From the UHGV virus genome UHGV-0180729: a stretch of 44,771 nt of DNA. One strand, 5' to 3'. Below are positions 1,049-1,675 of this stretch, one piece after another. The position numbers and the translations under genes are program-made. The notes under the pieces are model-generated. The model was not told the DNA's origin, searched no databases, and saw only the letters and a list, made by a program, of their open reading frames with translations. Origin of the DNA: a virus. How positions within the stretch are numbered: position 1 is the stretch's first letter; each line of letters opens with the position of its first letter.

Positions 1049-1675
1049 TTAACGGCGGCGACGTTCGCGGCGTGGTGCCTCATCCTCTTCGTCGTCTTCC
1101 AGGTCATCGACACTTGCAGCAACTTTAGAACCGCCGAACGCTTTACCTTCACCAACGTATTTAATCGCCAGCAGGTTAACGCCGAGGACTTTGTATTTCT
1201 GGCTGAACCAAATTTCGACGCTTACGTTAGCGACGCAGCCGCTGTAAACCTGTTCACCTTCAATCTGTTCACCGTCTACATTGAAGTCCTGCTCTACCTG
1301 AGTCTCACCTTTTTTAGAGGTTACAATCAGCGGCTGTTTCTGTGCCTTAGCTTTGAAGTAGAAACCTTCCGGGAAGTCTTCAAACGGATTGTCGCGCTCG
1401 GCGATGTCTTTAATCGCACATTTATCCATGTGCTTACCTTCGCCGTAGTTGGACTTCATCCACTTCTCGGCAGCGGCTGCACCTAACGCTTCTTCAACTA
1501 CAGCGTAAACAGTGTCGTAGAGTGCATCGATTTGAGCATGGTCAGACGGCAGGATAATAGTTGCGCTGTACTGGCCTTTAGTGATTGAGCCATCGTCGTT
1601 TTCACGGTCTTTTTCGCGTTCGAATACGTTAACCCATGCAGTGTTTACTTTACGCAGATTTAATTTCAGTCCCAC
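1049..1675 (-). CDS. T7 gp2.5-like single-stranded DNA-binding protein (DUF2815-like)
   Basis: 208 aa; GTG start with GAGGG Shine-Dalgarno; acidic C-terminal region VDDLEDDEEDE followed by RRERRRR; position between exonuclease and polymerase typical of this SSB class. Confidence 0.55.
   Translation of the reverse strand: MGLKLNLRKVNTAWVNVFEREKDRENDDGSITKGQYSATIILPSDHAQIDALYDTVYAVVEEALGAAAAEKWMKSNYGEGKHMDKCAIKDIAERDNPFEDFPEGFYFKAKAQKQPLIVTSKKGETQVEQDFNVDGEQIEGEQVYSGCVANVSVEIWFSQKYKVLGVNLLAIKYVGEGKAFGGSKVAASVDDLEDDEEDEAPRRERRRR

Follow-up and report, generated by a model that had tools for sequence, protein, structure and literature searches.

Why should the genes of two unrelated replication proteins in one phage encode the same acidic peptide, in nearly the same DNA? 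The question arises in the virus genome UHGV-0180729, a stretch of 44,771 nucleotides that was analyzed whole and is called the window below. An initial annotation had noticed that an SSB (a protein that binds single-stranded DNA) and a replicative helicase-primase both carry an acidic DDLEDDE stretch, and had read the similarity of the coding DNA as pointing to either a transferable interaction motif or recombination between the two genes. We find that the stretch belongs to a larger set of peptides, each an acidic run around a single leucine (consensus [AV]-[ST]-[DE]-[DE]-D-L), which also form the C-termini of a DUF2800 exonuclease, of the helicase-primase itself and of a small protein, orf77; these C-terminal copies had been overlooked. 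The motif is positionally conserved under protein-level selection and is shared within each genome. By analogy with phage T7, the acidic-leucine tag is probably (at roughly 0.6) a short linear motif, particular to the lineage, by which these proteins dock on one common partner.

Results and Discussion

A repeated peptide in neighboring early genes

The pattern [DE]DLE occurs five times in the approximately 75 open reading frames (ORFs) of the window, where 0.45-0.53 occurrences are expected; shuffling the residues within each protein, repeated 5000 times, never gave as many. The copies are confined to four neighboring early genes, and three of them are the last four residues of their proteins (exonuclease, helicase-primase and orf77), compared with an expectation of 0.0025 (Poisson P ~2.5e-9). 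The peptide motif is not a product of chance. In longer form the tail peptides read NRVTEEDLE, MLTVTEEDLE, MTATLEDLE, ASVDDLEDDEEDE and SVDDLEDDEEDE. The C-terminal region of the SSB reads ..GGSKVAASVDDLEDDEEDEAPRRERRRR or, in a second rendering, ..ASVDDLEDDEEDEAPRRERRRR, and the interdomain linker of the helicase-primase reads ..SVSCSLDDLEDDEDSEEDELPEP.. or ..SCSLDDLEDDEDSEEDELPEP.. (positions of all copies are given in Table 1).

A small protein of 68 amino acids (aa) had been proposed as a further carrier. Its tail does end in SDLEDDDED, but its membership is weak: there are three homologues only, of which two keep DLEDDED, while the match to the third stops before the C-terminus; in an earlier ORF-based comparison this third homologue read ..EYWEEDEEY. 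Separately, a highly charged protein of 173 aa (PHROG 3127, function unassigned) lies upstream of the exonuclease in all lineages. It has conserved acidic-aromatic ends (KYFEEE, TYFELED, KYYEIED and EFFEFEEE) as well as an internal KDEDLAEY, and it may be a further tagged member.

Conservation of the motif in related phages

The window has about 90% nucleotide identity to Kagunavirus-type siphophages of Escherichia, phiWAO78-1 (Guernseyvirinae) among them, and motif conservation was surveyed in 120 loci in all. In 36 close relatives the D-L-E core is invariant, with the exception of two likely sequencing errors. Further away, the D-L core remains invariant in orthologues down to 27-50% identity, although the codons differ, and it is found at the same position in the SSB, exonuclease and helicase-primase orthologues of Kagunavirus, Jerseyvirus, SenTO17-like phages, Dhillonvirus, Eiauvirus and Kc259 (Table 2). 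In the SSB alignment (n=12, down to 29% identity) D191 and L192 never vary, and D194, D195 and D198 are nearly invariant. The exonuclease alignment, which spans six lineages and reaches down to 36% identity, has invariant D411 and L412 in the tail and an equally invariant L288 in the internal copy.

Larger samples give the same picture. The acidic-leucine tail of the exonuclease is kept in 81 of 83 distinct clade sequences. Among 150 representatives of DUF2800, the complete top-ranked proteins (P0121-P0141, down to 36-37% identity) have DL within their last five residues; the exceptions in this range are two N-terminal fragments and P0139, which ends in DF. The acidic-DL tail of the helicase-primase is present in all clade lineages (78/80 distinct sequences), and its likeness to the tail of the cognate SSB (..VTEEDLE compared with ..VDDLEDD in the window) holds across every one of them. 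The linker copy of this protein follows the pattern C-x-D-x-D-L-x-D..P, whose position is conserved in 12 lineages, and the [LP]EDLE tail of orf77 is kept in 35 of the 35 homologues found. A short conserved D-L core within variable flanks thus recurs in three unrelated folds, those of the SSB, the exonuclease and the helicase-primase.

These observations bear on the simplest alternative, namely that the motif is functionless low-complexity acidic sequence produced by chance and codon bias. Early proteins of phages often contain acidic runs, and the tail of the 68-aa protein is indeed poorly conserved. Yet the counts and the C-terminal placement lie far above expectation, and the initial annotation's own caveat, that the motif might be simple sequence without positional conservation in homologues, fails on the depth at which D-L is invariant. 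We give this alternative next to no credence.

Table 2. SSB, nuclease and other tails in clade lineages and distant loci (a trailing ellipsis marks a sequence that continues; all others end at the C-terminus)
Lineage or locus	SSB	DUF2800 nuclease	Helicase-primase or primase	Other
Jerseyvirus	..SVDDLEDDEDE..	..VTEEDL	..TTEGDLE	orf77 ..TPEDLE
SenTO17-like	..TDSDLDDDDD..	..VTDDDLAN	..SVEDDLEN	
Dhillonvirus EP23	..CSDEDLGDDDEDE..	..ATDEDLSNE	..SATDDDLKD	
Eiauvirus	..ATDDDLSDD..	..KDDDLVD	..ATNSDLED	
Kc259	..SEGDLGFDEDEED..	..KKDLSLD		
L132	..DDFDDISEGADADALI	..NDFDDVSDDALAADLI		
L136	..GTADMI	..YEDMI		
L156	..AGEFV	..AAEFI		
L134	..AESLI	..AESLI		
L187	..EDFM	..DDFM		
Enc34 (L202, 568-6420)	ORF6, crystallized: ..AYDEDEDEWDEDEV (..WDEDEV)	ORF5: ..AYDDEDEDDDEV (..DEDDDEV)	ORF1 primase: ..FDDEDEV	ORF3 ..GEEEEV

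Shared codons follow from the shared peptide

The acidic stretch common to the SSB and the helicase-primase is real. Positions 1086-1110 (TCTTCGTCGTCTTCCAGGTCATCGA) and 6648-6672 (TCTTCGTCATCTTCCAGGTCGTCGA) are both minus-strand coding sequence, both encode DDLEDDE, and are identical at 23 of 25 nucleotides (nt), where about 24/26 had been stated; the ungapped match extends to 1086-1114 and 6648-6676 (26/29 identical, repeat family D7). A degenerate 25-mer finds exactly these two sites in the window and was found in 0/100 shuffles. However, five of the seven codons for DDLEDDE are identical where 3.35 are expected from the genome codon frequencies, and at least five has P=0.19. Moreover, the codons of the motif vary by lineage and by gene, and those for EDLE in orf77 are entirely unlike the other copies. 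The DNA identity is a by-product of coding the same peptide, and with codon identity at expectation and synonymous variation among the copies, recombination between the two genes is not indicated. Of the two readings offered by the initial annotation, the transferable interaction motif therefore stands as far as the sequence goes, whereas nucleotide-level conservation, and the evidence for recombination that was drawn from it, do not.

One pair of copies does have more codons in common than expected. The ends of the exonuclease and helicase-primase genes have 19 identical nucleotides (21/22, repeat family D14) and six of seven identical codons (P=0.015); it is the sole pair with such an excess, and the excess tracks the use of the sequence as a ribosome-binding site. 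The element GAGGAGGATTTGGAATGA combines a strong Shine-Dalgarno sequence with an ATGA stop/start overlap and starts the HNH gene in the window, and part of the coding sequence at the exonuclease end doubles as a ribosome-binding site: GAGGAGG, which provides the two glutamate codons of the exonuclease tail, is the ribosome-binding site of the overlapping HNH gene. Phage phiEc3 has this arrangement ahead of small genes that follow the exonuclease as well as the helicase-primase. Close relatives with an overlapping gene encode the exonuclease tail as ACA GAG GAG GAT TTA GAA TGA, and those without one as GTT AGT GAA GAA GAT TTG GAA TAA. Since (S/T)EEDLE is kept under both DNA versions, selection preserves the peptide, and the synonymous sites are adjusted to the needs of translation initiation. 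Among the 14 commonest DNA versions of the exonuclease tail, seven occur with different small overlapping genes (TGA/ATGA junction, 30 loci), four have no overlapping gene (TAA, 24 loci), and three are other arrangements (14 loci).

This excess speaks for a cause at the level of DNA, be it recombination or gene conversion, or a reusable cassette of Shine-Dalgarno sequence and ATGA junction that incidentally encodes EEDLE and is inserted together with small mobile genes. The codon excess fits such a cause, as does GAGGAGGATTTGGAATGA, which serves as ribosome-binding site and start for the HNH gene here and for small genes behind each of the two proteins in phiEc3. Other observations do not: the codon identity between SSB and helicase-primase is at expectation, orf77 and the SSB use other codons, and the tail of the helicase-primase in the window is followed by a terminator and no gene. 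An EEDLE tail that is merely a by-product of a ribosome-binding site was likewise rejected, as the peptide persists with GAAGAA..TAA where no gene overlaps, and EEDLE-type tails occur without any Shine-Dalgarno-like sequence in SenTO17, Dhillonvirus and Eiauvirus. A DNA-level cause is largely refuted by the synonymous variation; it is essentially excluded, and we consider it very improbable.

The setting of the motif in the SSB

The structure of the SSB was modeled with AlphaFold2 using 35 homologues. The model has a mean predicted local distance difference test score (pLDDT) of 86.5; residues 1-180 are nearly all above 85 (two blocks at 80-82), and the values for the tail (aa 181-208) are 58, 59 and 47 per ten-residue block. 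In this tail a four-residue helix is predicted at V189-L192 (VDDL), and nine of the ten residues 190-199 are D or E. The SSB motif is thus predicted to sit in a flexible or disordered acidic segment. The best Foldseek matches of the model in the PDB are the DUF2815 structures 4klk and 4jg2, the Enc34 SSB (5odl and 5odj) and T7 gp2.5 (1je5), each with a probability of 1.0. In the crystal of the Enc34 SSB (ORF6) the tail is disordered, and the part that could be traced lies in an adjacent molecule's concave beta-sheet, as is also the case in crystals of two other T7-type SSBs (PMC5686142).

The SSB of the window ends in ..EDEAPRRERRRR and has no terminal aromatic residue, unlike the ..DF of T7; its hydrophobic L192 lies 16 residues from the end. 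The window SSB ends in the basic P-R-R-E-R-R-R-R, and such P-R-basic modules are conserved among its relatives. In L039, L040, L041, L092 and L103 the tail switches between acidic and P-R-K/R blocks two to three times and is thus a blocky polyampholyte, which is unusual for SSBs.

Distant relatives share other tails within each phage

A profile of distant DUF2800 nucleases gathered 80 viral loci. A DUF2815 SSB is encoded in the same locus in 79 of the 80, and directly downstream of the nuclease where coordinates were inspected. In these metagenomic phages both proteins carry a bipartite tail, in which DDFDD[ILV] is followed by a hydrophobic tip (DLI, DLV, DMI, SLI, EFI or DFM). The tips resemble each other within loci (examples in Table 2): the last three residues are the same in 8 of 65 distinct nuclease-SSB pairs, compared with 1.4 in shuffled pairings, and 0/10000 shuffles reached eight. 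Profile-profile alignment places the internal AEELEDD of the window exonuclease on the DDFDDL of the distant DUF2800 proteins, and in the SSB alignment the DDL of the window falls on the DDF of distant DUF2815 proteins. The window clade has leucine at all of these sites together, where most of the family has phenylalanine.

Phage Enc34 illustrates a third form. Its primase, ORF3, nuclease and SSB have [DE]3EV in common at their C-termini, so that, judged by their sequences, the nuclease and the primase share the tail of the cognate SSB. The SF2 helicase of Enc34 ends in WDDEED. Homology between Enc34 ORF3 and the 173-aa acidic protein of the window was looked for and not detected. In T7, gp2.5 ends in ..DEDGDF and gp4 in ..SNDTDF. 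The identity of the tag therefore differs by lineage but is uniform among the proteins of a single phage. In the distant loci the homologous primase-helicases have no tail of this kind, and the tag of the helicase-primase is therefore a clade-specific acquisition.

Some distant members end much like bacterial SSBs: the primase of L193 ends in ..DLDDVPF, and DUF2815 SSBs end in ..DDDDDVPF (P0313), ..DDVPW and ..DPLFA, with P0313 and P0315 being the DUF2815 SSBs named for such ends. Such ends hint that SSB-binding proteins of the host may be targets of the tag in certain lineages. More generally, the tails might mimic the bacterial SSB tip, or a different motif of the host, so as to bring a conserved host factor to phage DNA intermediates. 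The host-like tips just listed and the resemblance of the distant DDFDDI to the bacterial tip, DFDDDIPF, are in line with this, and for the distant lineages with ..DDDVPF tails such mimicry is plausible. It fits the window clade poorly, where no tail ends in a Pro-Phe carboxylate and the SSB ends in RRRR; in addition, enterobacterial phages carry different tags (DL in Kagunavirus, DEV in Enc34, DF in T7). As a general explanation we judge docking to a host hub quite unlikely.

A shared docking site as the preferred explanation

If the tag is a docking peptide, the tagged proteins would compete for, or hand over at, one basic and hydrophobic site, and the exonuclease, the helicase-primase and SSB-coated DNA might take turns there. 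The first candidate for the receptor is the family-A DNA polymerase, because of the analogy with T7 and because it is the sole core replisome enzyme that is never tagged: the tag is absent from the polymerase in every lineage examined. A second candidate, or an additional site that could act alongside the polymerase, is the SSB's concave sheet, which binds DNA. The T7 polymerase gp5 has two basic patches to which gp4 binds by its acidic tails (PMC12593628); the front one (K587, K589, R590 and R591) is also where the tail of gp2.5 is anchored (PMC12339929), and the helicase and gp2.5 also interact via their acidic ends (PMC1616965). Mutations in T7 gene 5 are reported to suppress the loss of gp2.5's terminal Phe. 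The tag could also couple the exonuclease to the SSB or annealase, akin to the exonuclease-annealase pairs of lambda-type systems.

Acidic tails may instead work within their own molecule. Each segment would then fold as a DNA mimic onto its own protein's DNA-binding surface (the SSB groove, the nuclease channel, the helicase or primase site) and tune its specificity; there would be no common partner, and the likeness of the tails would reflect common mimicry of single-stranded DNA (ssDNA). Without its tail the Enc34 SSB gains binding to double-stranded DNA (PMC5686142), and the tails of T7 gp2.5 and T4 gp32 are reported to lower DNA affinity, with ssDNA and the tail of gp2.5 competing for one surface. 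All tagged proteins, moreover, are DNA-binding enzymes, with the reservation that orf77 has no identified DNA-binding enzyme domain. However, mimicry of charge would not need the same [AV][ST][DE][DE]DL in three unrelated folds, and it does not predict that the switch between Leu, Phe and EV occurs by lineage in all proteins of one phage together. We therefore regard a purely intramolecular role as unlikely.

Several points weigh against docking at a common partner. The receptor is proposed by analogy and elimination. Between the window polymerase and T7 gp5 there is only a distant relationship: a sequence search of the PDB matched it to the family-A enzymes Pol I, Taq and Bst and found no close match to gp5, the basic patch of gp5 is therefore not transferable by alignment, and no basic patch was identified on the window polymerase. 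The SSB motif is not at the extreme C-terminus, being followed by more acidic residues and a basic tail, unlike in T7. The internal copies in the exonuclease and helicase-primase could be structural elements and not docking peptides, an acidic tail may also exert its effect on the molecule that carries it, and the test of tail matching within loci ignores phylogenetic non-independence.

A wider form of the docking proposal, which we put forward tentatively and at a little short of even odds, is a tail code: phages with a DUF2800 nuclease, a gp2.5-type SSB and a family-A polymerase would share a co-evolving acidic-hydrophobic peptide, specific to each lineage, that addresses one site of the replisome and sets the specificity of partners in replication and recombination, and with it how portable these proteins are between phages and hosts. 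With the same reservation, its carriers would be the SSB and the cognate exonuclease, joined in certain lineages by small accessory proteins and by a primase or helicase-primase; its forms may be DL(E) in the window clade, [DE]3EV in Enc34 and DDFDD[IL]..DLI elsewhere.

If the tag is indeed a docking peptide common to these proteins, it would give a testable wiring diagram for the replication and recombination module of thousands of siphophages and prophages, a module for which, to our knowledge, the structure of the Enc34 SSB is so far the sole biochemistry. It would predict which proteins meet at the fork, the unannotated orf77 included, and would have the exonuclease coupled through its tail to the SSB/annealase or the polymerase. 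An exchange of tails should then redirect proteins from one lineage to another, a point that matters when phage recombination systems are transferred to new hosts.

Genomic context

The window is a complete, circularly permuted phage genome. Joining its end to its start yields a single polymerase ORF of 725 aa, whose full-length identity to the Shelanagig (Jerseyvirus) polymerase is 81%. The motif-bearing genes sit in a leftward early operon with the minus-strand order helix-turn-helix protein, orf77, helicase-primase, small genes, DUF2800 exonuclease, HNH-AP2 endonuclease, SSB and polymerase (Table 1). The SSB also matches PHROG 112 ('Gp2.5-like ssDNA binding and annealing protein'). The helicase-primase has AAA_25 (aa 352-522) as its sole Pfam domain, and a PHROG-side search gave a weak primase-family match at aa 90-187.

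Two GC-rich hairpins followed by T-runs are probable terminators or attenuators within the early operon. The first directly follows the stop codon of the helicase-primase and is shared with a convergent Cro-like gene, and the second lies between orf77 and the helicase-primase. A family of 24-31 nt repeats (ATAATAG..ACTATTCAC..) overlaps the two best sigma-70-like promoters of the minus strand, TTGACT-17-TATAGT before the SSB and TTGACA-17-TATAGT before the 4903-5079 operon. The two promoters are probably early ones with a common operator, next to the Cro-like gene.

Table 1. Positions of motif copies, genes and other features in the window
Feature	Position	Strand	Residues or length	Basis or context
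SSB motif	1079..1108	minus	DDLEDDEEDE (aa 190-199)	translation; start of flexible tail
SSB basic extension	1052..1078	minus	APRRERRRR	translation; after acidic block
Helicase-primase linker copy	6632..6670	minus	DDLEDDEDSEEDE (aa 337-349)	translation; just N-terminal of helicase domain
Helicase-primase C-terminal tail	5441..5461 (VTEEDLE)	minus	TVTEEDLE	translation
Exonuclease C-terminal tail	2236..2256 (VTEEDLE)	minus	RVTEEDLE	translation
Exonuclease internal copy	2602..2622	minus	AEELEDD (aa 285-291)	just past Cys cluster, beside variable-length insertion
orf77 tail	7739-7756	minus	..TATLEDLE	translation
68-aa ORF tail	9362..9388 (SDLEDDDED)	plus	..YSDLEDDDED	membership doubtful
SSB, T7 gp2.5 / Enc34 ORF6 type, probable annealing protein	1049..1675	minus	208 aa	PF10991 Enc34_ssDNA-bd, E=7e-16
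HNH-AP2 homing-type endonuclease	1736-2236	minus		inserted between exonuclease and SSB
DUF2800 / PD-(D/E)XK exonuclease	2233..3474	minus	413 aa	PF10926 E=6e-68, PF12705, PHROG 69 'exonuclease'
173-aa charged protein	4382-4903	minus	173 aa	PHROG 3127
Cro-like gene	5205-5420			
Replicative helicase-primase	5438..7678	minus	746 aa	PHROG 3228 'replicative helicase-primase', E=4e-301
orf77, small protein, function unassigned	7736..7969	minus		PHROG 5169, E=1e-37; directly upstream of helicase-primase
68-aa ORF	9185-9391	plus	68 aa	PHROG 27229
Family-A DNA polymerase	43583-44771 + 1-989 (1-989 = N-terminal third)	minus	725 aa	end-joined ORF
Hairpins with T-runs	5409-5429, 7705-7730			probable terminators or attenuators
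Repeat family	1737-1767, 5110-5140, 5159-5182, 8582-8605		24-31 nt	

Comparison with known systems

Acidic tails are textbook features of T7-type SSBs and of T7 gp4. The window resembles T7 in having a T7-type SSB fold, a family-A polymerase without a tail and a putatively bifunctional helicase-primase (PHROG 3228, with the weak primase match), and in the acidic tails, which on SSB and helicase-primase alike have one key hydrophobic residue behind an Asp (..GDF and ..TDF in T7, ..DL(E) in the window). It differs from T7 in that this residue is Leu and not a terminal Phe, in that the copy on the SSB lies within the tail, ahead of the basic PRRERRRR, and in that the tag is also found on the DUF2800 exonuclease, on orf77 and in internal linkers, whereas T7 gp6 has none. 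The Enc34 ORF6 / DUF2815 SSBs (5ODJ/5ODL, 4JG2, 4KLK) belong to a homologous family and have an acidic disordered tail, but the motif in the window is DL and not DEV. The structural paper on Enc34 treats the tail as a feature of the SSB only and does not mention the tails of the other replication proteins (PMC5686142). In the literature searched, we found described neither the tag on DUF2800 exonucleases, small proteins or internal linkers, nor its co-variation within genomes across this very large phage module.

The C-terminal tip of bacterial SSB (..DDDIPF) is a hub for many genome-maintenance proteins. Like the tag, it is an acidic run with a hydrophobic anchor on a disordered tail that serves as a shared docking peptide, and distant DUF2815 SSBs end near-identically (..DDDVPF). 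The arrangement differs in that bacteria have one carrier and many readers, whereas here many carriers have one tip. All proteins of the window were inspected and none ends in D-(I/L/V)-P-F, while some distant DUF2815 proteins do.

The pairing of exonuclease and SSB recalls the phage recombination systems. In the duf2800-gp2.5-polA module the nuclease adjoins an ssDNA-annealing or -binding protein (PMC8093625); as in lambda Exo-Beta and RecE-RecT, a nuclease and an annealing or binding protein are adjacent and probably form a specific pair. For lambda, the contact is described as one of the C-terminal domain of Beta with Exo (PMC6393309), which is not a shared acidic peptide. In the phages studied here, the matching of tails within a genome would provide the specificity of the pair.

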